64,000 nt of DNA. Source: a virus. The stretch covers positions 1 to 64,000 of the IMG/VR virus record IMGVR_UViG_3300013114_000583. One strand, given 5' to 3'. Of this stretch, positions 3,496 through 56,711 are shown piece after piece; position 1 is the first letter of the stretch, and each line of letters opens with the position of its first letter. Under the pieces are notes generated by a model, which saw only the letters and a list, made by a program, of their open reading frames with translations, made no database searches and was not told the origin of the DNA. A program made the translations under genes and the position numbers.

Positions 3496-3801
<306 letters not shown>

Positions 3802-37926: not shown

Positions 37927-38136
37927 TCACATCGGATCGGCACTGTAAGCGATTGGTGTTGAAATTACCAATAACTCTAAATCACCCTCATCGAACCATC
38001 GGTCACCATGCGACTGGTGCATAGTATGCCATCGCACGTAAACATTGCTCGCCCGATGAGGAAAATCGCGCACCGATTGAACCAAGCCAACCACATTGCG
38101 ACCATGACGAAGTCTAACCAGATCGCCAACTTTCAT
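37927..38136 (-). CDS. MKVGDLV-family KOW/SH3-like small protein
   Basis: MKVGDLV..VGLV..VYVRW..W...DLELL. Confidence 0.75.
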   Translation of the reverse strand: MKVGDLVRLRHGRNVVGLVQSVRDFPHRASNVYVRWHTMHQSHGDRWFDEGDLELLVISTPIAYSADPM

Positions 38137-39864: not shown

Positions 39865-40311
39865 TTACTCGTTACCACAATTAATGTCAATTGATAGCGG
39901 TTGCGCTTCGGGGCGTGGCGGGACCCGAACAGTCAATAAACCATTCTCAAATGATGCAACAGTTCCGGAAAGATCCAGATTATCATCATAATTTACATAA
40001 GTGCGCTTAAAGGCGCGTTGGGCAATGCGTCGGTTTGGCCGTTCTGTAGGGTGATGAATAGCATCAGCTGAAACTGTAATACTTCGTTTGGCTGGCAAGA
40101 CATCGACGGTCAAATCCTCCTTGGTGAACCCTGCAAGAGCAAATTCAAGCACGGTATGATCATCCTCATCACGATAAATGTCAGCCACTGGATAGCCAGA
40201 TGTTGACGCTTCGAGATGACGTGGAAAATCGCTAAACAAGTTTTCAAACACATTGGCGAGCGTGGTGTTGCCCAATAAACCTGGGCGAGTGGATAGTGTA
40301 ATTGCATTCAT
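39865..40311 (-). CDS. small heat shock protein Hsp20
   Basis: GYPVADI, LEFALAGF.KEDL, IAQRAFKR, ASFENGLLTV; start MNAITL after AGGAGG. Confidence 0.9.
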   Translation of the reverse strand: MNAITLSTRPGLLGNTTLANVFENLFSDFPRHLEASTSGYPVADIYRDEDDHTVLEFALAGFTKEDLTVDVLPAKRSITVSADAIHHPTERPNRRIAQRAFKRTYVNYDDNLDLSGTVASFENGLLTVRVPPRPEAQPLSIDINCGNE

Positions 40312-40381
40312 AATTATTCCTCCTTCATTAAGCAAGTTACAATTTTGTGACCGAAACCCTTACGGCGTTTAAAGTCACAAA
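40312..40381 (-). promoter_or_regulatory. ROSE-like RNA thermometer in hsp20 5' UTR
   Basis: CTTGCT opposite SD AGGAG; upstream hairpin TTGTGAC/GTCACAA. Confidence 0.55.
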
Positions 40382-42217: not shown

Positions 42218-42397
42218 TCACTTCTTCTTTTTTTGGCATCTCTTCACCATCTCTAAATGAATAGGACTAACAATCCATTCATTTCCTGTTTCTGTTCTAA
42301 TTACGGCATCCATCGTGTAGGCGTAAAATCCAACTACCTCGCCCTCAATGTTGCCCTTGTTTGTGATCTTAACTCGATCACCCCTTTTAAAGCTCAT
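42218..42397 (-). CDS. KOW/SH3-like small protein (59 aa)
   Basis: MSFKRGDRVKI..GEVVG..; below ORF-track cutoff. Confidence 0.7.
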   Translation of the reverse strand: MSFKRGDRVKITNKGNIEGEVVGFYAYTMDAVIRTETGNEWIVSPIHLEMVKRCQKKKK

Positions 42398-42612
42398 TTT
42401 ACCTCCACCTTATGTAAATATCTAACTGCGCAATTCCCCGTATGGGGGATGGCCCATTCTCGTTTTCCACCACGAGTACCAGACCAATAGACGCGGGCCC
42501 GCATTGGCTCCCCCAAGCTATTCTTCAGGGTAATCTCTGTTACGACACCCAAGCCATACAACTCAGGTGGAGCACAGAAATTATCCATAGTCACCAGATC
42601 ACCTACTTTCAC
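42394..42612 (-). CDS. MKVGDLV-family cassette protein
   Basis: N-terminal motif; array junction. Confidence 0.8.
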   Translation of the reverse strand: MKVGDLVTMDNFCAPPELYGLGVVTEITLKNSLGEPMRARVYWSGTRGGKREWAIPHTGNCAVRYLHKVEVK

Positions 42613-42787
42613 TGACTAGCTCCACGAAATTAGCACCAAACTTAGTATAATGCGAACCAACCATGACTCGTAAAGTTCGTTGAGACGAAGGTCGATGATG
42701 ATCACCGATCCCTACTACGATTCCGACCTTCCCGCCCCACCAGTAATAGCTATCCTCTGGCAATCTGACCAAATCACCGACTTTCAC
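42599..42787 (-). CDS. MKVGDLV-family cassette protein
   Basis: MKVGDLV...ELVSESR. Confidence 0.8.
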   Translation of the reverse strand: MKVGDLVRLPEDSYYWWGGKVGIVVGIGDHHRPSSQRTLRVMVGSHYTKFGANFVELVSESR

Positions 42788-42959
42788 TTAACACCTCAAA
42801 ATCTGTGTCATAGCTTAACACCTCATAGTCACCATCGAAGTAAAGACACATCATGAACGCAGGCTGATCGCCGGTTGTCGCGACAACCTCCGTTATGATT
42901 CCAACCGGATGGACGCCGGGCGAGACTATATTCACTTTTATCAAATCACCGACTTTCAC
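42774..42959 (-). CDS. MKVGDLV-family cassette protein
   Basis: MKVGDLI...EVLSESR. Confidence 0.8.
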   Translation of the reverse strand: MKVGDLIKVNIVSPGVHPVGIITEVVATTGDQPAFMMCLYFDGDYEVLSYDTDFEVLSESR

Positions 42960-43134
42960 TAATAACCTCTATATCTCTGATGTCTGACCAGAATGTACCA
43001 TAGTCACCGTCCCAACGTACCCTGTACGACATATGGTCACGGTCAACGGCAGCAAAACGGGCTTCAATGATTAGGCCCACGAACACCCTGCCTCTGGGTC
43101 GACCCCGCTTCTGAACCAAGTCACCGACTTTCAC
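42946..43134 (-). CDS. MKVGDLV-family cassette protein
   Basis: MKVGDLV...EVISESR. Confidence 0.8.
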   Translation of the reverse strand: MKVGDLVQKRGRPRGRVFVGLIIEARFAAVDRDHMSYRVRWDGDYGTFWSDIRDIEVISESR

Positions 43135-43309
43135 TTACAACCTCCAAGCTTGGGGTGATAGTAGTAAACAACTGACCCGTTACCACCGATCGGATCTTAA
43201 GCGGAAAACCATGATGCTCAACTATAATACACAAACGATGACCCTCTGGTAAGTGTCTTAGATCCATCGGCGGAAGGCCAGTCCATCGCACCAAGTCACC
43301 GACCTTCAT
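43121..43309 (-). CDS. MKVGDLV-family cassette protein
   Basis: MKVGDLV...EVVSESR. Confidence 0.8.
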   Translation of the reverse strand: MKVGDLVRWTGLPPMDLRHLPEGHRLCIIVEHHGFPLKIRSVVTGQLFTTITPSLEVVSESR

Positions 43310-43536
43310 TTCCATAGTGTCACGATATGGCCGAACTCTCTATCAAATACCTTAACCAAGCCCTCGTAATCACCCATCATCATCACTTTGCAGATGGCAG
43401 CAATTCGGCTTTCTGAATATCCCAGCTTTCGACCGATGGTTCGAGCAGCGGAACATAAAGCAAAGGCGTTCCCCTCTGCCCCGGTTAGATCAATTTCAAT
43501 AGACCCTATGGGTTTATCCTTTTTTGAGCGAATCAT
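43306..43536 (-). CDS. conserved phage hypothetical protein (IDLTGxxGNAF family)
   Basis: EIDLTGAEGNAF...GDYEGLVKVFDREFG; unrelated insert in array. Confidence 0.75.
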   Translation of the reverse strand: MIRSKKDKPIGSIEIDLTGAEGNAFALCSAARTIGRKLGYSESRIAAICKVMMMGDYEGLVKVFDREFGHIVTLWK

Positions 43537-43736
43537 TGAGCGGTACTTCTCACGATGAATTCGTTTTTTCTGTAGTACCGCACAGGCTCGCCAGGATATA
43601 AAACCTTTATTGAGTATCCGTCGAAGGCAGGATTAACCGTGGCGTGGACATGGTTGCCGATGTAGACACCGACCGTACCTTGTTCGTGAGGTTCAATCCT
43701 GCCCCAACGCTTCTGTACCAAATCACCGACTTTCAC
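43533..43736 (-). CDS. MKVGDLV-family cassette protein
   Basis: N-terminal motif. Confidence 0.8.
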   Translation of the reverse strand: MKVGDLVQKRWGRIEPHEQGTVGVYIGNHVHATVNPAFDGYSIKVLYPGEPVRYYRKNEFIVRSTAQ

Positions 43737-43890
43737 TGATAACCTCGTATTCGCTCATCCACTCCCAATAAATGCTGCTCTCCGTATCAAGAATCAAAAT
43801 ATGCGGGACGGTATGCCGTTGATTCTTGATCTCAAGAACAATTCCTGAGCAGCCTGCGCTTTTGTTCCTCACCAAGTCACCGACCTTCAT
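43723..43890 (-). CDS. MKVGDLV-family cassette protein (55 aa)
   Basis: MKVGDLVRNKSAGCSGIVLE...EVISESR; below ORF-track cutoff. Confidence 0.8.
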   Translation of the reverse strand: MKVGDLVRNKSAGCSGIVLEIKNQRHTVPHILILDTESSIYWEWMSEYEVISESR

Positions 43891-44077
43891 TTAGCACCAC
43901 CAACATATCAGCACGAATCATCTTTGATCCCGAAGACACCAGTGCTACCTTATACCAAAGATGATTTGAGATCCCGTAGTCCACCCCAGACTCAGTAGAA
44001 ACAACAATACCAACTTCACCATACCAAGGTGGCCTAAGTGTGCCGCCTTCCATTTTTACTAAATCACCTGCGCGCAT
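43877..44077 (-). CDS. MKVGDLV-family cassette protein
   Basis: start reassigned to MRAGDLV; ends NEGR. Confidence 0.8.
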   Translation of the reverse strand: MRAGDLVKMEGGTLRPPWYGEVGIVVSTESGVDYGISNHLWYKVALVSSGSKMIRADMLVVLNEGR

Positions 44078-44279
44078 ATTTAAGTTCCAACCTTGAGTGT
44101 GCAGGAGGGAATCGGTCGCTACGATTGGAATCAGCCTTTGTCCATTGAACATAATAAGGATAATTTCGACCAGGGAGTACCTTGGTTATTAGCCCCACCT
44201 GGTCTTCGCGTGCTAACCAAAGGTTGTAGTCGCGATCTTTGCCGTATGCGGACAACCTCACTAGATCACCGACCTTCAC
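44064..44279 (-). CDS. MKVGDLV-family cassette protein
   Basis: LSAYG subfamily. Confidence 0.8.
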   Translation of the reverse strand: MKVGDLVRLSAYGKDRDYNLWLAREDQVGLITKVLPGRNYPYYVQWTKADSNRSDRFPPAHSRLELKYARR

Positions 44280-44469
44280 TTACCACCTTCAAATCATAGT
44301 CCCACACATTGTTCCCAACGGTACCGTTCCACCACAAGACCTTGAACACCTTATTGGTGCAACCCAGACCCTTGTTGTGTCCGATATTCTCAACGATCAC
44401 ACCAATCTTGTTCGGCACAATCCGGAACCTGCTTGGATGGTTGTCTTTCACTAAGTCACCGACTTTCAC
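44266..44469 (-). CDS. MKVGDLV-family cassette protein
   Basis: MKVGDLV...VVSEGR. Confidence 0.8.
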   Translation of the reverse strand: MKVGDLVKDNHPSRFRIVPNKIGVIVENIGHNKGLGCTNKVFKVLWWNGTVGNNVWDYDLKVVSEGR

Positions 44470-44690
44470 TTTGTCAACCTCGTGAAATAATCACAATGAA
44501 CTGTCTTTTTGCTACCATCATGGTGCAAAAGGTCAGCCCAGCCCTCCTCTAGCGAATTATTGCCAGTCCAGCCCAGAAAAATCAGCGGTGATGCGCGGGC
44601 GACCGATTGTGCAAACCACTCAGAAGGCTTAACATGCTCTAGCTCCGGTACCGAACCCCAGTTAAGAAAAACCAAATCACCAACCTTCAT
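44466..44690 (-). CDS. MKVGDLV-family cassette protein
   Basis: N-terminal motif. Confidence 0.8.
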   Translation of the reverse strand: MKVGDLVFLNWGSVPELEHVKPSEWFAQSVARASPLIFLGWTGNNSLEEGWADLLHHDGSKKTVHCDYFTRLTK

Positions 44691-44869
44691 AATTTAATCA
44701 GCTCCTCCTCTGAATACCAATCCCTCTCCGAAATACAGTGGTCCACCCATCGTACCCTGTACGGAACTCTTCCAGCTTTCGCCCGGTTTGATTCTATCCC
44801 TATAACGAGACCAACCTCTATGCGGCGGTGGCCATGATGGCGGTACCGAACCAAATCACCGACTTTCAT
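44687..44869 (-). CDS. MKVGDLV-family cassette protein
   Basis: N-terminal motif. Confidence 0.8.
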   Translation of the reverse strand: MKVGDLVRYRHHGHRRIEVGLVIGIESNRAKAGRVPYRVRWVDHCISERDWYSEEELIKL

Positions 44870-45047
44870 TGATTACTTCCAAGTCTTCTCTCTTGGTGAG
44901 GGTTCTTACATTATTGTCTTTATTCCACATTACGGCCTTCCTTTCATCTGTTCCAGGGATGCACCGAATAATGAGACCACACCAGTCTTTCCAATAGTTT
45001 ATAACAACCCCGTTTGGTGTGTATCTTACCAAGTCACCGACTTTCAC
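44856..45047 (-). CDS. MKVGDLV-family cassette protein
   Basis: MKVGDLV...EVINESR. Confidence 0.8.
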   Translation of the reverse strand: MKVGDLVRYTPNGVVINYWKDWCGLIIRCIPGTDERKAVMWNKDNNVRTLTKREDLEVINESR

Positions 45048-45231
45048 TGACTAACTCCAAGTGAACCGGATCAACCTGGCTCATACCACAATCGCAACAA
45101 ATGATAAAACTGTGGGCACGTTGGGCGTAGGGCATTTGGTACGCCGTGACCACAATCGCTGTCGCACATCTTACATCGCCCGCTTGACCCGAACAGCAAA
45201 GTATCGGTCTTACCAGGTCACCGACCTTCAT
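45034..45231 (-). CDS. MKVGDLV-family cassette protein (Cys-rich)
   Basis: MKVGDLV...ELVSESR. Confidence 0.8.
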   Translation of the reverse strand: MKVGDLVRPILCCSGQAGDVRCATAIVVTAYQMPYAQRAHSFIICCDCGMSQVDPVHLELVSESR

Positions 45232-45500
45232 GGAATCTGCACCCCGTTCCTAATAACCTCAAATTCGCTTCTAAGGTTGTGGATGTTTGTGCCAGCATAA
45301 CCATGAGCGCGGTTGTACATTTGCGGGATCTCTCCCTGCCATGCAACAAACACGTTGTTTTGGTGCCCCCACTTATCCTTACGAATCTCGTATACAACTC
45401 CAGTATATACCCGGCCTTGATAACCGCTGCTCCAGCGGACGCGGTCGTCAGGAGTGACGACGAGCAAGTCACCAAGTTTTGGATGCCTACTTTGCCTCAC
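45228..45500 (-). CDS. KOW/SH3-like cassette protein
   Basis: PKLGDLLVV..TGVV..VFVAW. Confidence 0.75.
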   Translation of the reverse strand: MRQSRHPKLGDLLVVTPDDRVRWSSGYQGRVYTGVVYEIRKDKWGHQNNVFVAWQGEIPQMYNRAHGYAGTNIHNLRSEFEVIRNGVQIP

Positions 45501-45672
45501 TGATTAGCTCACAATCATTTTCAATGTACTCCCTGGGAAACCAAGCTACGTTGGGGACGCCCCTAACCACGTCTGCTACCTTATACGTAATAACATCAGA
45601 TTTACTGTCCTTGTCCACTATCAATCCTATCTCGGGATAACCTTTTTCTCTCACCAAATCACCGACTTTCAC
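45487..45672 (-). CDS. MKVGDLV-family cassette protein
   Basis: MKVGDLV...ELISEAK. Confidence 0.8.
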   Translation of the reverse strand: MKVGDLVREKGYPEIGLIVDKDSKSDVITYKVADVVRGVPNVAWFPREYIENDCELISEAK

Positions 45673-45865
45673 TGATTACATCCACATACTGCTCGTTCCA
45701 CCGCTCTTTGTGTCCTAGATTTGTTAACACCCAAATATCAGGATGTAGACACGGACTTTGGTCAATGTGTGTAAGTTCCCCGTCGTACCCAACCGCAAGA
45801 ATGAAACCAGTGGAATTCCAGCTTATATATTCAGACTTGTATTTTACTATGTCACCGACCTTCAC
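45659..45865 (-). CDS. MKVGDLV-family cassette protein
   Basis: MKVGDIV...VISESR. Confidence 0.8.
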   Translation of the reverse strand: MKVGDIVKYKSEYISWNSTGFILAVGYDGELTHIDQSPCLHPDIWVLTNLGHKERWNEQYVDVISESR

Positions 45866-46055
45866 TGATTAACTCCAGGTCTTCCTCAAAACAACTATCA
45901 AATTCACCGCTCTGTATCAGTACGTCAACAAGATAATAACATTCATATGGATAAGCCTCTCCACCCGGCTTGCAATCTTCGGAAAGCCTAGGCTTAGACA
46001 TAACAATACCTACTTCATCACAGTGTACTACGAAGACCAAATCACCGGGTTTCAT
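45852..46055 (-). CDS. MKVGDLV-family cassette protein
   Basis: MKPGDLV...ELISEGR. Confidence 0.8.
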   Translation of the reverse strand: MKPGDLVFVVHCDEVGIVMSKPRLSEDCKPGGEAYPYECYYLVDVLIQSGEFDSCFEEDLELISEGR

Positions 46056-46230
46056 TTTTTATTGCTTGCACATCTTCAGAAGACTCCCAAACCGTATCAA
46101 TTATTGACGGCCTGCACCACCTAACTTTAGCCATTTTCGATTCAACGCAAAGAACCAAACCAACATCATTAAGGACTTTTTCAGTCATCCACTCATTCGG
46201 TTTGTATTTGACCAAATCACCGGGTTTCAT
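46042..46230 (-). CDS. MKVGDLV-family cassette protein
   Basis: MKPGDLV...NETR. Confidence 0.8.
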   Translation of the reverse strand: MKPGDLVKYKPNEWMTEKVLNDVGLVLCVESKMAKVRWCRPSIIDTVWESSEDVQAIKNETR

Positions 46231-46414
46231 CTACTTCGCCCCAAGCGCACTCCATAACCGCCGCAGAACACTCGTCCAAAGCTATCTTTAGTTTAGATTC
46301 TTCTAGGGAATTACACGATGTCTCTGGTTCGCCAGGTGACGAACTTTTGTGGGTAGCATACGCAAATACCATGAGCAAAATTCCTAATGCTATAACTAGC
46401 TCGCCAATTTTCAT
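46217..46414 (-). CDS. small membrane/secreted protein with cassette-type ends
   Basis: MKIGELV then hydrophobic helix; ends EVDETR with 14-nt overlap. Confidence 0.65.
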   Translation of the reverse strand: MKIGELVIALGILLMVFAYATHKSSSPGEPETSCNSLEESKLKIALDECSAAVMECAWGEVDETR

Positions 46415-46737
46415 CTTTCAGTCCAAGGGCCTTTAACAACATTTCCCAGCTCAAACCCAGCTTGGAGTGCAGCGTCTCGGGCTGCCTCTATCTGTGCAGA
46501 ATATTCAGAAGTCAGTGACCACTTAATAGTCGCAGAGGCGTCATCGAGAACGCCCTGTACCTTACCCTCGCAAATACAAGCGAGCAAGGTACAAAACATG
46601 GCTGATGCGCGAGGATCGTCAAAAACTCCGGTTTCATAAGCATGAGCAATATCGTGTAATATCTTCGTACCTTGACGGTTCACGTTTTTCTTTGCAGACA
46701 AGAAGGATTCATACAACTCGGACATAAAAGTCTCCAT
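46411..46737 (-). CDS. hypothetical protein (first gene of array operon)
   Basis: 108-aa ORF directly after promoter. Confidence 0.65.
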   Translation of the reverse strand: METFMSELYESFLSAKKNVNRQGTKILHDIAHAYETGVFDDPRASAMFCTLLACICEGKVQGVLDDASATIKWSLTSEYSAQIEAARDAALQAGFELGNVVKGPWTER

Positions 46738-46756
46738 AGATTTCTAGTGTATATAT

Positions 46757-46785
46757 ATAATATCATGGCCAGAACAACAAGTCAA
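46757..46785 (-). promoter_or_regulatory. sigma70 promoter driving cassette array 1
   Basis: TTGACT-17-TATTAT, TG extension. Confidence 0.75.
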
Positions 46786-46907
46786 GGACATAGTTCATTT
46801 ATTTATGAGACATCGATGTCTCACTATTTACGCCACCAATCAATAGCAAGTTGACCAACAAATAGACCAATAGCAATCGCGAACACTGTCGCAATAAAAC
46901 TTGACAT

Positions 46908-47228
46908 TTACCCCCCCTTTCGTAAAACCTCATCCAGTACAATTCCGCGATCGAACGAACCCTTAGTTTCTCGTTTTATAGAAGCCGTCCTCTTAACATC
47001 ATTCAAAGACAGTTTCCAGTTTTTTACCAAAGATAAAAAAACCTCATAAATATCCGCTGCTTCATCGAGACATGGAGTCTCTGAAAATTCAAGTAGTTCC
47101 TCCCTCATCTTCTCGATGAGAAGGGCGTCAAATTCTGCGCTGTCAGCAACGTGGGCGCGCAGCTCTTGGCCGGATTCTCTTATGATTCCTGGTATCTTAT
47201 CTCTTACCAGTTTTGGTAAACGCGCCAT
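46908..47228 (-). CDS. MazG-like/PRA-PH-like nucleoside triphosphate pyrophosphohydrolase
   Basis: KLVRDKIP, KMREELLE, EAADIYEV, KRETKGSF. Confidence 0.85.
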   Translation of the reverse strand: MARLPKLVRDKIPGIIRESGQELRAHVADSAEFDALLIEKMREELLEFSETPCLDEAADIYEVFLSLVKNWKLSLNDVKRTASIKRETKGSFDRGIVLDEVLRKGG

Positions 47229-47230
47229 TC

Positions 47231-47713
47231 CTAAGTATCTTCGTCGGTATCTTCGTCGGTATCTTCGTCGGTATCTTCGTCGGTCTGAATTTCGACTAAC
47301 TCAATCTTAAAATTCAAATCCTTACCCGCCATCGGATGATTAAAATCAATAGTGACATTCTCTTCTGATTCGTTCAATATAGTGCCCATAACAGGGCCGC
47401 CTGCAGGGTTTGTTCCATGAACCACGGATCCTTTTACAAACGGAAAATCCGGCGGAAACTGTTCCTTTGGTACCTCTTGAATCGCCTCTGGGTGATGTGG
47501 GCCATATGCCTGATCGGAAGTTAACGTAATCTCTTTCGTTTCCCCCACAGTCATTCCTAGAACATTCTCTTCAAATCCGGGGATCATCATACCTGCTCCA
47601 AGCGTGAAACTAATTGGCTCCCCTCTGTCAAATGAACTGTCAAACTGTTCGCCGTCAGGGAACGTGCCCCTGTAGTGTACCTGTACCGTGTTTCCATTCT
47701 CTACTTTACTCAT
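47231..47713 (-). CDS. FKBP-type peptidyl-prolyl isomerase (SlyD/FkpB-like)
   Basis: VHYRG..DGEQFDSS, IPGFE, QAYG, DFNHPMAGKDL; (DEDT)4 tail. Confidence 0.92.
   Translation of the reverse strand: MSKVENGNTVQVHYRGTFPDGEQFDSSFDRGEPISFTLGAGMMIPGFEENVLGMTVGETKEITLTSDQAYGPHHPEAIQEVPKEQFPPDFPFVKGSVVHGTNPAGGPVMGTILNESEENVTIDFNHPMAGKDLNFKIELVEIQTDEDTDEDTDEDTDEDT
47235..47282. repeat. 12-bp tandem repeat x4 (coding DEDT)
   Basis: GTATCTTCGTCG x4. Confidence 0.95.
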
Positions 47714-47741
47714 TTTTTCTCCTTTATCTGAGCATACACAA

Positions 47742-47770
47742 ATTATACCTTATCTAAATATAAATGTAAA
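47742..47770 (-). promoter_or_regulatory. sigma70 promoter
   Basis: TTTACA-17-TATAAT. Confidence 0.7.
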
Positions 47771-47792
47771 CCTTTTTCTTACTTATTTTATA

Positions 47793-47865
47793 AGCTGACG
47801 GTGAGACTCGAACTCACAACCTGCTGCTTACAAGGCAGCTGCTCTGCCGGTTGAGCTACGTCAGC
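47793..47865 (-). tRNA. tRNA-Thr (UGU)
   Basis: GCTGACG/CGTCAGC acceptor, loop CTTGTAA, TTCGAG. Confidence 0.95.
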
Positions 47866-48089
47866 ACATCCTGTAGTTGGTGTCTGGTCAACGGTTTGGT
47901 GACCAATGCTAATTCGTCTGGGCCGCTCCACCTCCGAAAAAACCGATTGCCTGTTTTAAACCAACAAACTTTAAACTGCGGGATCGCCTTGCACCCATTC
48001 TCTGCTATGATATAACCAACTGGCATTTTCTGGAAAGCATAGTCTACGCGAAAATTCTTCTTCATTTTAACAATGTCACCGACCTTCAC
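47856..48089 (-). CDS. MKVGDLV-family cassette protein
   Basis: MKVGDIV; 3' end overlaps tRNA-Thr by 10 nt. Confidence 0.75.
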   Translation of the reverse strand: MKVGDIVKMKKNFRVDYAFQKMPVGYIIAENGCKAIPQFKVCWFKTGNRFFRRWSGPDELALVTKPLTRHQLQDVLT

Positions 48090-48255
48090 TAATAACTCCT
48101 ATACTTGGATGCCCCGGACAAAACCATCCGTCGCCGTCTCCGGTTTGCCACCTAATGAAAACGTGAGTAAGCGTAACTTGATGTACGATACCGATGTCTG
48201 TCGTAACGCAATCACTATACTCGGTATACCACTGGACTAAATCACCGACTTTCAC
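48076..48255 (-). CDS. MKVGDLV-family cassette protein
   Basis: GTG start at junction; ends VISEGR. Confidence 0.8.
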   Translation of the reverse strand: MKVGDLVQWYTEYSDCVTTDIGIVHQVTLTHVFIRWQTGDGDGWFCPGHPSIGVISEGR

Positions 48256-48451
48256 TGACAGCCTCGCAACAACTTGTGACAAACCATTTGATCCCCTTGT
48301 CGGCTGTCAACACTTTTAGTGTGCCGCCTTCCTCATTATCATACAGAACAATACCAACTTGATCGACTGGCTTTTCATATTTGATACGAGCGGCGTAGTT
48401 GGGGTGGTTACGTGGCGCATAATTGTAAACCACCAAATCACCGACTTTCAT
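48242..48451 (-). CDS. MKVGDLV-family cassette protein
   Basis: MKVGDLV...VSESR. Confidence 0.8.
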   Translation of the reverse strand: MKVGDLVVYNYAPRNHPNYAARIKYEKPVDQVGIVLYDNEEGGTLKVLTADKGIKWFVTSCCEAVSESR

Positions 48452-48626
48452 TGATGACCTCCAGGTGTACTCTGCAAGCTGCCCAAGCCCTCCCGCGGGT
48501 GTCCAAGATACTTACCATATCTAAAGTCGGCAGAAACCTTGTGATGAGGTATACACCGCCGGGAAAGTCAGAGCGCGCAAAACCGAGCTTACGCGGAACA
48601 TGTTGTACTAAATCGCCAACCTTCAC
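48438..48626 (-). CDS. MKVGDLV-family cassette protein
   Basis: MKVGDLV...EVINESR. Confidence 0.8.
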   Translation of the reverse strand: MKVGDLVQHVPRKLGFARSDFPGGVYLITRFLPTLDMVSILDTRGRAWAACRVHLEVINESR

Positions 48627-48819
48627 TTACAACCTCCAAGTCTTCTTCGTTATAGTCTTCAACGCCACAGCTAGGATCATCATACCACTCGACTCTAAAC
48701 AAATCATAGCACTGGTACCCACCGCAAATTTTCTTCGGCATGTACCCAATGATCATGCCAAGCGTATCATACTGGGTTTCTTTGCAGTCAATGAAATGAA
48801 CAAGGTCGCCAGGGATCAT
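48589..48819 (-). CDS. MKVGDLV-family cassette protein (junction stop lost)
   Basis: MIPGDLV...EVVSEGWRFSTTCSA. Confidence 0.75.
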   Translation of the reverse strand: MIPGDLVHFIDCKETQYDTLGMIIGYMPKKICGGYQCYDLFRVEWYDDPSCGVEDYNEEDLEVVSEGWRFSTTCSA

Positions 48820-48835
48820 AACTTAATAACCCCCC

Positions 48836-49063
48836 TCACTTAACATACATCAGGTCTTTTCTGGTGTTGGAGCGTTCGTAAGACCAGCTCCGGCGGGGAT
48901 GGGTCCAGCTGCTCCGCATCCACTGGACTATGTAATCATCGGCCCACGGTTGTGAATACTCAACCACTCTGGTGATCAGACCAATGTCATCGTGGTCGAT
49001 CCATTCTGCACGTTTTCTTTTCCGGCCATACGCCGATAGCTTCACTAAATCACCGCACTTCAT
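48836..49063 (-). CDS. MKVGDLV-family cassette protein
   Basis: start reassigned to MKCGDLV; LSAYG subfamily. Confidence 0.8.
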   Translation of the reverse strand: MKCGDLVKLSAYGRKRKRAEWIDHDDIGLITRVVEYSQPWADDYIVQWMRSSWTHPRRSWSYERSNTRKDLMYVK

Positions 49064-49220
49064 AAACACGCTCCAGTTCTCTCTTTGGCCACCACTCAGA
49101 ATGGCCCTTATCCGTAAACGTAACCTTGACGAGGTGTCCGTCGAGGCCAAGAATTATCCCAACAACGGGCTTCTTGTCTGCCCAATCATCAACATGATAA
49201 ACCAAATCGCCACACTTCAC
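49050..49220 (-). CDS. MKVGDLV-family cassette protein (56 aa)
   Basis: MKCGDLVYHVDDW..VGIIL..ERVYEVR; below ORF-track cutoff. Confidence 0.75.
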   Translation of the reverse strand: MKCGDLVYHVDDWADKKPVVGIILGLDGHLVKVTFTDKGHSEWWPKRELERVYEVR

Positions 49221-51350: not shown

Positions 51351-52625
51351 TCAATCAATGGCAACAACTCTTTCGTTAGTGGTGAAATACGGACGTCGTG
51401 CATGTTCAAGCGTAGTCATCCACATTCGTTGGCACTTACTTGGTTTTGGTTTCGGAGCACACAGGTCAGTCAATACAATATGACCATCAAACTTGCCAGC
51501 ATTGTTAACATACTCAGTAGGAGCATTAAAATCAGTGCCTCCGCACATAACTCTCTCCTTTTCAACTTTTTTGCCTTTCTTCCAGGTCCAGATCAAATCC
51601 TCTTCAACTCGGGTATCGAACGGAATCACAGTAAACTCCGCGATTTCTGCTAACTTATTAAGTTCAGCAAAAAACTTACCAAGCATTTCATTGGAAACCG
51701 AACCAGACTGATCAATCGAAATAGCCACTTTAGCTACTCGATTGGACTTTTTGCCGGGATGAATATAGGCATAACGACGATTGATACGCTTAATCGAAGA
51801 AGACCTATTAGCCTTCTGACTCGCCTTGACAAAATACCGAAGAACTTTTTTCCAATCAATCTTTGTTTCAAGCACCTTCATAATCTTTTGGCGTGTATTC
51901 GCAGGAATGGAGCCCCAACTATTATTCGCCGCACATTCGTCAGACGCTTTTTTAATAATTTCCTTCAAACGCTCTTTCGCCATTTCTTTCACTTCCTGGT
52001 CGCACTTACCCCAGCCGCTATGATCATCAAGACTATCAGGAATACTCCCTTGGTCTTGGCCAGGGTCTCCACTAGAGTCCCCAGGTGGTTCTTGACCAGA
52101 GCCACCGGGTGCACTATCATCACCTTTACCGCTGCCACCACCCTGGGGGTTCTTTTGAAAATCCGGCAAGTTAGCAAGATACCACTCAGCGGATTGGCCG
52201 CGAGGCAAATTCTCAAAAGGAGAGCCCTTCTCGCCGGGAATCAACCCACCAGGAGGCAAGTGGTGAAGATGCGAATTGATAGCAAGATCAGTTGCCACGT
52301 TCCAAAGTTTCATCTTAACGCCGACAGGGAGACGATCAGTGACATGAAGAAAAAGAATGTGATAGTATTCATGTTTAAGGACGTCTCTGCGCTGCTCGTC
52401 AGTTAACCCAGCAAAAAACTCGGGATTATACAACATTTCAAATTGTGCTGTTTCTGGATTTACCATAACACCAGCAGTAGGCAAAGCATAAGATGCCCTT
52501 TTATCAATACGTCGAGAAATGGCCGCAAAGAACGGCTCATCCATCAAAAGACGAGCAGTGTGAATATTTAAATCAAACTCCTCGCGAGGAACTTTAGAAC
52601 CATTAAACATATCGCGGTCAGCCAT
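51351..52625 (-). CDS. metallopeptidase-like (HEXXH) plus VWA-like domain protein
   Basis: KHEYYH, WNVATDLAIN, DQSGS MIDAS, GGTDF, LTD. Confidence 0.85.
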   Translation of the reverse strand: MADRDMFNGSKVPREEFDLNIHTARLLMDEPFFAAISRRIDKRASYALPTAGVMVNPETAQFEMLYNPEFFAGLTDEQRRDVLKHEYYHILFLHVTDRLPVGVKMKLWNVATDLAINSHLHHLPPGGLIPGEKGSPFENLPRGQSAEWYLANLPDFQKNPQGGGSGKGDDSAPGGSGQEPPGDSSGDPGQDQGSIPDSLDDHSGWGKCDQEVKEMAKERLKEIIKKASDECAANNSWGSIPANTRQKIMKVLETKIDWKKVLRYFVKASQKANRSSSIKRINRRYAYIHPGKKSNRVAKVAISIDQSGSVSNEMLGKFFAELNKLAEIAEFTVIPFDTRVEEDLIWTWKKGKKVEKERVMCGGTDFNAPTEYVNNAGKFDGHIVLTDLCAPKPKPSKCQRMWMTTLEHARRPYFTTNERVVAID

Positions 52626-52627
52626 CG

Positions 52628-53704
52628 TTATTCACCAGACTCCTGGTCACCGGCGAGAATTCGCACAAGATAATCAGAAACTGAGTTGCCATCAACTTCA
52701 GACTGGTGCAATTTAATAGTGTTATTGAGAGCACCATTTCCCAGCACAGACCACAACTTCATTGCAACCTCTGAAGGGAGCATTATAAAATAACGAGCAA
52801 GGTTGTCAACATTTGCTTGTTCCAGCTCTTCTTTAAAAGACTCAGCGGCTTCAAACTTTTCAATTAGAGCGGTGTGATCATTGATCCCAAAATCAGCAAC
52901 CTTATCAAACTTACCGTGAACAAGAATATCTTCAACAGTAACTTGACGATCATAGTTTCCGATAAAATCGTTAAAAGCAACAGCGGCTTCAAAACCAACA
53001 AATGAACCTGCCAAGTGATATAACGTCGGACTAGACTCTAAACTTTCACCCAGCAAACCAGCAGAAGCCAAACAAGAATCAAGACGCTCCCAAGAACGGC
53101 GTGATGGATAAACTTTATTTGGCTCAAAGTCATCAGAGTGCTCAAGGTGCGCACGGTTTTGATTGATAAAATCCCAAGTTACATCAGTGATCTGGTTATC
53201 TTTTGCCCAAGATAACCAGTCTTCAGTAGAAGGCTCAACATCAAATACCGTCCAGCGATCCAACTCGGCGGGATCCATTTCGCCAACCTGATATTGCGCA
53301 CCATGATCACCACCATTAACAGCAGCAAAAATAAGAGTACCGGCATGTAGGCTATGGCCGTTCAATTTACGAGAATCTGTCAACTCAAAAATTCCTTGAC
53401 GGACTTCGAGAGTAGCTCGATCAATCTCGTCGAGAAATAAGATAACAGGCTCGTCGCAAGCTCGTTTGTACCAGTCCGGTGGATTGAATGAAGTGCTGTT
53501 ACCTTTAATAACAGGCAGCCCAACCAAATCACCCTCAGTCATCTGAGAGGCGCGCCTCTCTACCACAGGTAAGTCAATCTTTTTAGCATATTGGTAAACC
53601 ACCGTAGACTTACCAATACCGTGACGACCACGAAGCAAAACAGGTTTACGAACATCAGTAACATGATGAACGATTGCGGAAAATGTCTTGAAATCAACTG
53701 CCAT
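52628..53704 (-). CDS. MoxR-like AAA+ ATPase
   Basis: Walker A GRHGIGKS, Walker B LFLDEIDR, DPAELDRW, PSRRSW. Confidence 0.9.
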   Translation of the reverse strand: MAVDFKTFSAIVHHVTDVRKPVLLRGRHGIGKSTVVYQYAKKIDLPVVERRASQMTEGDLVGLPVIKGNSTSFNPPDWYKRACDEPVILFLDEIDRATLEVRQGIFELTDSRKLNGHSLHAGTLIFAAVNGGDHGAQYQVGEMDPAELDRWTVFDVEPSTEDWLSWAKDNQITDVTWDFINQNRAHLEHSDDFEPNKVYPSRRSWERLDSCLASAGLLGESLESSPTLYHLAGSFVGFEAAVAFNDFIGNYDRQVTVEDILVHGKFDKVADFGINDHTALIEKFEAAESFKEELEQANVDNLARYFIMLPSEVAMKLWSVLGNGALNNTIKLHQSEVDGNSVSDYLVRILAGDQESGE

Positions 53705-56328: not shown

Positions 56329-56521
56329 TAAACATTCTGTACTCAGGGCCGAGTGAATCGACTAACTCAAGAGTTTCCTCGAAATCGTCAAACCAATAGA
56401 CACGCATCAAATGGTCACGCTCGGAGTGGTAACCCAACACCAAACCCATAATCCAGTCTGGTTCGGTGTCACAACCTTCGCACAAATTAAACTGAATTAG
56501 GTCGCCTCTTTTAAGACGCAC
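56306..56521 (-). CDS. KOW/SH3-like small protein
   Basis: LKRGDLI..MGLV..RVYW; overlaps tRNA-Arg by 23 nt. Confidence 0.7.
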   Translation of the reverse strand: MRLKRGDLIQFNLCEGCDTEPDWIMGLVLGYHSERDHLMRVYWFDDFEETLELVDSLGPEYRMFSPGSSVG

Positions 56522-56711
56522 TTATAACCTCCAAGTCACTGGAACAGTTGGCGACGCACTCTCCGTTTTCCCAAAATACGAAGAAATATCTTGTGTTTCT
56601 ATCAAGGATGATGCCGCGCTGGCGTACATCGACGAGGCCAACAGTATCATAATTCACTGTGTGCCAAATTTCGTTTATTTCGTTCCATTTAACGAGATCG
56701 CCTATCTTCAT
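56511..56711 (-). CDS. MKVGDLV-family protein
   Basis: MKIGDLV...LEVISAS. Confidence 0.75.
   Translation of the reverse strand: MKIGDLVKWNEINEIWHTVNYDTVGLVDVRQRGIILDRNTRYFFVFWENGECVANCSSDLEVISAS

Follow-up and report, generated by a model that had tools for sequence, protein, structure and literature searches.

Overlapping mini-genes of uncultured marine phages share a short coding junction where array breakpoints fall

Introduction

Phage mosaicism is usually ascribed to illegitimate recombination and selection, and conserved linkers are rarely found at the joints (PMC3029335). For lambdoid and other phages, short conserved sequences at module boundaries have been put forward as the basis of modular exchange (summarised by Pope et al. 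2011, PMC3029335), and are said to be unidentifiable at most mosaic joints (PMC3029335). The main documented exception to linker-free joints is the promoter-early stem-loop (PeSL) of T4-type phages, an intergenic element made of a sigma-70 promoter and a terminator stem-loop (Arbiol et al. 2010, PMC2839356; Comeau et al. 2014, PMC4122927). Here, we describe a repeated coding junction in two arrays of overlapping mini-genes of an uncultured marine phage of about 140 kb or more. The stretch of DNA analyzed, hereafter the window, comprises the first 64,000 nucleotides (nt) of the IMG/VR virus record IMGVR_UViG_3300013114_000583, which is 139,834 bp long and has an estimated completeness of 77%.

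The closest known system is that of the PeSL cassettes. In both cases, copies of a short motif, which bears expression signals as well, occur between the small non-essential genes of a large lytic phage, the ends of indels and replacements between related phages fall in the motif, and there is no site-specific recombinase. The initial annotation of the window had drawn this parallel, which holds for the modular shuffling at a repeated expression-signal motif but not for the nature of the motif, since the junction has no promoter and no stem-loop and is not intergenic. It is wholly coding, in two frames, it keeps a polycistronic chain of genes with overlapping stops and starts, and it joins members of one protein family, whereas the PeSL joins unrelated ORFans. 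The likeness to integrons, also suggested initially, is only functional: tandem promoterless cassettes are read from an upstream promoter, and the content of the arrays varies between close relatives by gain and loss of whole cassettes. However, no tyrosine integrase such as IntI was found, and there is no attC-like imperfect inverted repeat at the junctions, which are coding and lie between paralogous cassettes.

The junction realises the old idea of a short conserved boundary sequence, in which homologous recombination at the edges of modules explains mosaic joints, with the difference that here the sequence is present at 474/828 boundaries and conserved across a clade. It also resembles the stop/start overlaps that couple translation (ATGA, TGATG), where the upstream stop lies at or after the downstream start and the ribosome-binding site is inside the upstream gene. 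Here, however, the two genes overlap by 14 nt of fixed sequence, in which conserved residues of both products are encoded; the same arrays contain 52 4-nt ATGA/GTGA overlaps. We consider it likely that the mini-genes form two polycistronic cassette arrays, in which the junction is the site where cassettes are deleted, inserted, replaced, and passed between phages, most likely by short-homology recombination.

Results

The mini-gene arrays and their junction

At least 27 paralogous open reading frames (ORFs) of 55-77 amino acids (aa) lie on the minus strand between positions 42394 and 49220, in two sub-arrays (Table 1). Their products share the pattern MKVGDLV...VG(I/L)V...W...(D/E)LEV(I/L)SE(S/G)R, and further family members are found at 37927, 50274, 55520, 56306, 56511, and 57897. 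The arrays are interrupted by a tRNA-Thr gene, the gene of an FKBP isomerase, and two other small genes.

The 19 coordinate pairs of the initial annotation are true 14-nt overlaps, each placing a minus-strand stop over the next family-type start. The overlap is exact in geometry and not in sequence: 13/19 carry the motif RTGAARGTCGGTGA and the remaining six are variants of it. Three extra exact copies occur at starts that overlap the upstream gene by only 4 nt (43296, 44456, and 45218). When up to two mismatches are allowed, the motif is found 26 times in the window, against 1.42 expected, and none of 100 shuffles reached this number. All 16 exact copies of the 140-kb record fall within the window, on the minus strand.

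The junction extends over ~32 nt, with the consensus T-G-GAGGT-n-AT(C/A)-A-RTG-AAA-GT(C/A)-GGT-GA-T-TTG-GT. The upstream gene reads it as ...TTG GAG GTn ATC AGT GAA AGT CGG TGA, where the third base of ATn varies, and the downstream gene as GTG AAA GTC GGT GAY TTG GTn. The 14 nt encode the upstream end S/N-E-S/G-R-stop and, in the +1 frame, the downstream start M-K-V-G-D. The frames are thus those initially proposed, with RTG starting the downstream gene and the TGA inside its G-D codons stopping the upstream one. The Shine-Dalgarno site was initially assigned to GAGGT, from the Glu-Val codons, but its core is GGAGGT, from the Leu-Glu-Val codons, at -11..-6 and 5 nt ahead of the start codon. 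The coupling of the two frames is visible in their variation, since ATG starts go with upstream ends in ..INESR, GTG starts with ..ISESR, and the codon AAG with ..SEGR. At 48613-48626, a GGC codon for Gly removes the TGA, and the upstream ORF 48589-48819 is extended by 37 nt. The isolated member at 56511-56711 ends in ..DLEVISAS outside any array context, showing that the overlap is not required for LEVIS, which is a motif of the protein.

A scan of the window found 16 promoter-like sites, against 16.1 in shuffles, and the three good ones precede non-family genes or tRNAs. At the junctions, only one weak 9/12 sigma-70-like match touches one of them (first hexamer on start 48451), and 7/8 of those tested for RNA folding had a z of about 0. 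The same scan found no terminator-like site on the minus strand. Since promoter-like sites are found only ahead of the interruptions and minus-strand terminators are lacking, the arrays are probably read as long polycistronic units. As in translationally coupled operons, the ribosome-binding site and the start are within the upstream gene, with no intervening promoter, and the translation of a downstream gene may depend on that of the upstream one.

Rearrangements between related arrays

Closely related loci differ by whole cassettes. L018 and L020 are 99.5-100% identical over 11 kb save for the indel of one 176-nt cassette, which is bounded by the perfect 20-nt direct repeat ATGAAAGTCGGTGATTTGGT and leaves a product in register. 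L025 (the same contig as L070) and L060 have unrelated 140-nt cassette bodies between 99%-identical flanks that reach the junctions. L054/L077 and L060/L125 differ by blocks of several cassettes, whose ends are at -15..+22 of the start, except for one L054 alignment end at +184. The L018/L020 indel and the L025/L060 swap support the initial claim that whole genes are deleted or swapped at junctions. Because the genes overlap, only an in-register join inside the shared sequence restores both proteins and their start signals, and the observed products are such joins.

Near-identical cassettes are also found in diverged phages. The backbone genes of the L044/L048 contig and of L083 are ~70% identical, yet the two share a 363-nt block at 99.2% identity, whose 3' end is inside a junction. 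Similarly, L083 and L087 have 66-70% identical backbones and share one 231-nt cassette at 98.7% identity, with different neighbours on both sides.

The order of the cassettes changes rapidly with divergence. Orthologous cassettes that are 80-97% identical have the same 14-nt-linked neighbour orthogroup in only 7/44 cases upstream and 6/48 downstream, whereas at 97% DNA identity or more the values are 35/42 and 33/39 (Fisher p 3e-21). In contrast, the AAA-ATPase/DUF2201 gene pair beside the arrays stays adjacent at a mere 65-70% identity. In the 80-97% pairs, identity is 0.75-0.95 inside the cassette and equals the random-pair baseline of 0.25-0.3 at all positions before about -12 and beyond about +6 from the stop. 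On either side, similarity ends within the junction, and the baseline is reached directly outside -12..+20. Alignments of >=93% identity have 99 ends no more than 120 nt from a family start. Of these ends, 87 are at -20..+29 of the start, where a share of 21% was expected (binomial p 2e-46). The order of orthogroups is permuted between phages (17-3 in one, 3-17 or 3-26-17 in others; 64-4 and 4-64), and several orthogroups are present twice in one array.

Contigs from six or more further assemblies (ENA samples SAMN10231887-90 of the SUTE22-1 set; Logan runs SRR8062352 and SRR8062355; JGI 3300013109) match the arrangement of the window itself, with collinearity and 99.9-100% identity along as much as 6.2 kb of array. 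The agreement of these independent assemblies shows that it is real and dominant. There are also co-occurring variants. Contig L252 is 99.4% identical up to 43289, 20 nt into the gene starting at 43309, and then continues into a different cassette. In L253, identity of 99.4% extends as far as 48466, which lies 15 nt ahead of the start codon at 48451, and the cassette 48438-48626 is missing. Both breaks fall inside junctions. A third contig, L262, lacks the FKBP gene and breaks at the end of the tRNA-Thr, at 47791. Hence, the enrichment of breakpoints at junctions, which the initial annotation proposed as a check, is borne out by the alignment ends, the indel, the body swap, the permuted order, and the variants L252 and L253.

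The arrays seem to break short-read assemblies. Among the 108 fetched stretches that are not whole short contigs, 54 touch a contig end, and contigs bearing family proteins are mostly of 1-2 kb. Aside from the junctions, we observed a 215-nt indel with tRNA-like sequence between L073 (7254-7468) and L118 (2960-2967), which are 99.6-99.95% identical; AATGTAAA(A/T)-like words are found near both ends of the insert, which is not at a junction.

Conservation of the junction beyond dual coding

The other proposed check was whether synonymous positions of the junction are more conserved than dual coding requires, and with the codon usage of the cassette bodies as a baseline they are. One ascertaining junction per locus was removed before these tests. 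Bases are fixed where M, K, V, G, D, TGA, or the AGT/AAT-start constraint force them, as tabulated by position. In addition, the sites that are read in a single frame and allow a synonymous choice all depart from the codon usage of bodies, in the direction of the consensus. At the ribosome-binding site, GAG was observed in 282/290 cases with 132 expected (98% in junctions and 46% in bodies), TTG or CTG at the preceding Leu in 170/213 (85 expected), and ATC at -4..-2 in 148/210 (68 expected). Within the downstream gene, AAA was found at codon 2 in 235/280 cases (142 expected), GTC at codon 3 in 227/293 (60 expected), and GAT at codon 5 in 283/353 (212 expected), while CTC and CTT at Leu 6 are avoided (11/316, with 119 expected). 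Third codon positions at -5 and +20 are free to vary.

In 92% of the junctions, the upstream protein ends in Arg, encoded by CGG 261 times and by AGG 65 times, whereas cassette bodies favour AGG and use CGG for only 8% of their Arg codons. There are 144 family genes with no overlapping upstream ORF. They still have GTC in 57% and GGT in 71% of cases, against 20% and 30% in bodies, and their start codon is shifted to ATG (78%). Neither the CGG preference nor the GTC-GGT of these non-overlapped genes is explained by coding. The ribosome-binding site and the start context account for part of this excess in conservation: a ribosome-binding motif of this kind precedes 42/64 long ORFs genome-wide, against a background of 20%, and A-rich early codons are a known expression feature. 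Overall, the excess could come from translation, recombination, or shared history.

Distribution across phages

The 21-nt pattern AGTGAARGTCGGTGAYYTRGT was found in more than 119 IMG/VR stretches, with about 0.4 expected. In these stretches and the window, we called 948 family genes, which form 574 orthogroups at 50% identity. Among the 828 pairs of consecutive family genes, an overlap of exactly 14 nt is found in 474 and one of 4 nt in 52. Four large array-bearing genomes have terminases 46-67% identical to that of the window phage. The large relatives have 10-22 family genes each, clustered in one region, and the record of the window has 26. The stretches with the junction come from a broad clade of marine phages of 140-280 kb.

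A search of 50,697 GenBank phage records with a 43-nt junction query gave only chance partial matches, and none of them has the junction. A scan of bacterial genomes returned mostly single matches in unrelated taxa, with about 35 expected by chance. Three marine metagenome-assembled genomes (Legionellales SP228, Deltaproteobacteria SP124, and Flavobacteriales; L204, L134, and L161) have contigs with two to five junctions. These are probably mis-binned phage contigs and give no reliable clue to the host.

The mini-protein family

An AlphaFold model built from 55 diverse members is a five-strand SH3-like barrel (pLDDT 92), with a less confident tail (74 for the last two residues, S-R). The best fold matches in the PDB are R67 dihydrofolate reductase, PetP, Tudor, PWWP, and KOW domains, with TM scores of 0.66-0.74 and Foldseek E-values of about 0.04-0.1. 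Among viral fold matches, the best are unnamed viral proteins, and the two named ones, lower down, belong to uncultured phages. The mini-proteins are thus like small barrels such as R67 type II dihydrofolate reductase, PetP, Tudor, and KOW in predicted fold, but do not belong to these sequence families. Searches of Pfam, PHROGs, and the protein atlas returned no match above threshold. Below the Pfam cut-offs, MSSS (PF20297; 17 bits, cut-off 26.8) and DUF2158 (PF09926; 12.3 bits, cut-off 22.3) were each matched by one of the seven members scanned.

The ratio of nonsynonymous to synonymous substitution rates (dN/dS) in cassette bodies has a median of 0.17 (109 orthologous pairs in 57 orthogroups). 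This purifying selection indicates conserved proteins rather than a hypermutating sequence. Profile searches with E-values up to 0.001 retrieved 5,985 clusters at 50% identity. Ten of them were looked up and gave only "hypothetical protein", with Tara Oceans records as the sole named sources. The mini-proteins are probably early or host-directed factors. Natural two-domain fusions exist among metagenome proteins (P0001, P0028, P0029, and P0139): P0001 reads the junction in frame (..EVVKQVKVGDLV..), and P0029 is on 20 contigs.

Genomic context

The minus strand holds nearly all ORFs of at least 150 aa in the window and every ORF of at least 300 aa in the record. The latter encodes GroEL, a large DNA polymerase, ribonucleotide reductase, DnaB, the major head protein, portal, and large terminase. 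The large terminase shares 45% identity with its counterpart in Flavobacterium phage immuto and 42% with the one in Microcystis phage Mel-JY01, and the window phage has no close cultured relative. A nucleotide search with the array region for cultured relatives gave only tRNA matches, a protein search with one cassette gave none, and the FKBP gene, used as an anchor to fetch close relatives, retrieved none.

The chaperone set is unusually rich, with GroEL (G000 64994-66580, outside the window), Hsp20, and the FKBP-type prolyl isomerase, which lies within the array region and has a C-terminal (DEDT)n tail. The window also encodes a transfer-messenger RNA (tmRNA) with the tag ANDDVEIFEDFALAA and five tRNA genes (1224, 41879, 41969, 47793, and 56254). 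The gene pair beside the arrays, DUF2201 (metallopeptidase plus VWA-like) and an AAA_5 ATPase, is kept in many contigs with arrays, at a nucleotide identity of 65-70%, and can therefore serve as an anchor for the backbone.

Two ORFs of sub-array 2 stand out. The ORF 46217-46414 (minus strand) begins with MKIGELV and finishes with ..EVDETR in a 14-nt junction, and has a membrane-helix-like body and a Cys-containing tail in place of a barrel. It is the sole clearly non-family body among the 50 junction-linked ORFs missed by the family model. We considered that junction-bounded ORFs might be captured cargo and rejected this, as most of those missed by the model still resemble divergent members. 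The ORF 43306-43536 (minus strand) is an unrelated 76-aa gene set in the sub-array via 4-nt overlaps. It has orthologues in L048, L083, and L097 at 73-79% nucleotide identity, and those of L048 and L083 are amid differently ordered cassettes, which indicates that non-family genes travel with the arrays.

Table 1. Features of the arrays and their surroundings (window coordinates; HMM, hidden Markov model).
Feature	Coordinates	Strand	Remarks
Sub-array 1	47856..49220	-	Seven family mini-genes; family starts, translations, family HMM matches
Sub-array 1 genes, first four	49050-49220, 48836-49063, 48589-48819, 48438-48626	-	
Sub-array 1 genes, last three	48242-48451, 48076-48255, 47856-48089	-	
14-nt junction	49050..49063	-	Variant ATGAAGTGCGGTGA (has TGC)
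Degenerate junction	48613..48626	-	GGC Gly codon, no TGA
14-nt junction	48438..48451	-	Exact RTGAARGTCGGTGA; contig L253 breaks 15 nt upstream of start
14-nt junction	48242..48255	-	Exact RTGAARGTCGGTGA
14-nt junction	48076..48089	-	Exact RTGAARGTCGGTGA
Promoter-like TTGACT-17-TATTAT	46785-46757	-	Upstream of sub-array 2
Sub-array 2	42394..46414	-	19 family mini-genes and two non-family ORFs; ORF list, family starts, HMM
14-nt junction	46217..46230	-	Variant ATGAAACCCGGTGA (has CCC)
14-nt junction	46042..46055	-	Variant ATGAAACCCGGTGA (has CCC)
14-nt junction	45852..45865	-	Exact RTGAARGTCGGTGA
14-nt junction	45659..45672	-	Exact RTGAARGTCGGTGA
14-nt overlap	45487..45500	-	Deviant start MRQSRHPKLGDL...
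14-nt junction	45034..45047	-	Exact RTGAARGTCGGTGA
14-nt junction	44856..44869	-	Exact RTGAARGTCGGTGA; ATG start, upstream gene ending INESR
14-nt junction	44266..44279	-	Exact RTGAARGTCGGTGA
14-nt overlap	44064..44077	-	Variant ATGCGCGCAGGTGA; MRAGD start, upstream gene ending ..ARR
14-nt junction	43877..43890	-	Exact RTGAARGTCGGTGA
14-nt junction	43723..43736	-	Exact RTGAARGTCGGTGA
Motif at start, 4-nt overlap	43296..43309	-	Exact RTGAARGTCGGTGA; non-family upstream gene; L252 breakpoint gene
14-nt junction	43121..43134	-	Exact RTGAARGTCGGTGA
14-nt junction	42946..42959	-	Exact RTGAARGTCGGTGA
14-nt junction	42774..42787	-	Exact RTGAARGTCGGTGA
14-nt junction	42599..42612	-	GTA variant; upstream Arg thereby AGG
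Isolated family member	37927..38136	-	MKVGDLV.., without 14-nt partner, outside arrays
Isolated family member	56511..56711	-	Ends ..DLEVISAS, outside arrays
FKBP-type prolyl isomerase	47231-47713	-	Within array region
Hsp20	39865-40335		
DUF2201 and AAA_5 ATPase gene pair	51351-53704	-	Beside arrays
tmRNA	3496-3801	-	

Discussion

The junction is common to every cassette and to the whole phage clade, and is therefore the sole homology between otherwise unrelated neighbours. A crossover within its ~32 nt would delete, insert, replace, or pass cassettes while keeping both frames and the start signals. A candidate enzyme would be the phage's own RecA/UvsX-like recombinase, acting during co-infection or replication, and replication slippage may be a route between adjacent repeats. 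A RecA family match of 118 bits is found at G000 85233-86027, inside a 370-aa ORF (84969-86081). The same sequence at both ends of the modules, the joints inside it, and the RecA-like gene are, at the level of sequence, consistent with short-homology recombination at boundaries. As claimed initially, the system is integrase-free: no tyrosine integrase (PF00589) was found in the 140-kb record or in three relatives that are 92-100% complete, and we rejected an explanation by integrase on these grounds. Searches for RecT and reverse transcriptase found none. A diversity-generating retroelement was rejected as well, given the absence of an RVT_1 match and the purifying selection on the bodies (median dN/dS 0.17).

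Several observations weigh against recombination at the junction. Pairs of window junctions share exact runs of 24 nt at most, with a median longest run of about 9 nt, and such homology is at or below the usual minimum for efficient RecA-type exchange. Junctions are about as alike within a locus (75.3%) as between loci (74.6%), which gives no sign of local homogenisation by frequent intragenomic exchange. Since surviving events must keep genes intact, some excess of breakpoints near gene ends is to be expected. Almost all comparisons rely on short-read metagenome assemblies, only four events between near-identical loci are clean, and the dominant population of the window phage does not change from sample to sample. 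The share of stretches touching a contig end, one half of those that are not whole short contigs, fits heterogeneity of the arrays in the population and calls for caution.

Some of these points would be expected if the junction were kept for expression only, by dual coding, ribosome binding, start context, and coupled stop and restart, with illegitimate recombination occurring anywhere and selection retaining the products that preserve gene ends, so that the junction would be no recombination substrate. Most fixed positions are indeed forced by M-K-V-G-D, TGA, and the AGT/AAT-start constraint, the GAG, the G at -11, and the AAA are consistent with selection on ribosome binding and start context, the exact runs shared by junctions are short, and there is no homogenisation within the genome. 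We nevertheless find this explanation unlikely. In overlapping genes, a random join would almost never restore both frames, yet the L018/L020 indel lies between perfect 20-nt direct repeats and its product is in register, the four clean array events break at -15..+22 of the start save for the L054 end at +184, and GTC (57%) and GGT (71%) persist in the 144 genes that are free of dual coding. The use of CGG raises another possibility, that of programmed +1 frameshifting at this rare codon before TGA, which would produce beads-on-a-string poly-SH3 proteins beside single domains. CGG, 8% of body Arg codons, is found at 261/326 last-Arg positions before TGA, and in-frame two-domain fusions occur naturally in metagenomes. 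However, re-pairing from CGG to GGT is not slippery, and GGAGGT is about 16 nt upstream of CGG, whereas the ribosome-binding-type motif of the RF2 frameshift site is spaced by ~3 nt. As every downstream gene has its own start codon and ribosome-binding site, frameshifting strikes us as extremely improbable.

The evidence for shuffling could itself be questioned if short-read assemblers hopped between co-occurring phages at the repeated junction and produced chimeric contigs. The arrays do disturb assembly, as shown by the 54/108 stretches touching a contig end, the contigs with family proteins are mostly of 1-2 kb, and the near-identical blocks come from sample series with neighbouring identifiers. 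We think it very unlikely that this accounts for the results, because exact identity of junctions rarely exceeds 24-35 nt, which is shorter than the final k-mers expected of usual assemblers, and because hops between collinear relatives would keep the order of orthogroups, yet the order is permuted. Besides, the window phage was assembled independently six times or more, with 99.9-100% agreement for as much as 6.2 kb of array, L018 and L020 are concordant over about 20 cassettes save one, and cassettes merely 80-97% identical are also found in different contexts. If real, the rearrangements might still have arisen inside each lineage, by tandem duplication, divergence, and differential loss only, with no genes passing from phage to phage. 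In favour of this, family members are tandem paralogues, several orthogroups are present twice in one array, and deletions between junctions were observed. There is little chance that these processes suffice: inversions of order cannot come from loss alone, ~99% identical cassettes are found in phages with 66-70% identical backbones, and an unrelated cassette body replaces another between identical flanks. Recombination at the junction hence remains the reading that we favour.

A further proposal is that the junction is a selected, clade-wide exchange signal, which would make the thousands of SH3-like mini-genes a common pool open to diverged marine phages upon co-infection. We advance it tentatively, as a possibility that we lean against at present. 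If true, these phages would have a cassette system without an integrase, where one and the same sequence codes in two frames and is at once a translation signal and a recombination site, and the conservation of GTC-GGT beyond coding needs would be maintained because cassettes stay exchangeable.

The linker described here is coding throughout and recurs at hundreds of joints within one family-level clade of uncultured, abundant marine phages. Comparison of their arrays reveals single-gene deletion, replacement, and lateral transfer at this junction. The junction arrays would explain why such regions fragment metagenome assemblies. They offer a natural design in which coding, translational, and recombinational roles may be combined in one short sequence, and a concrete, testable case of a phage that would keep a large exchangeable repertoire of small proteins (about 6,000 clusters).

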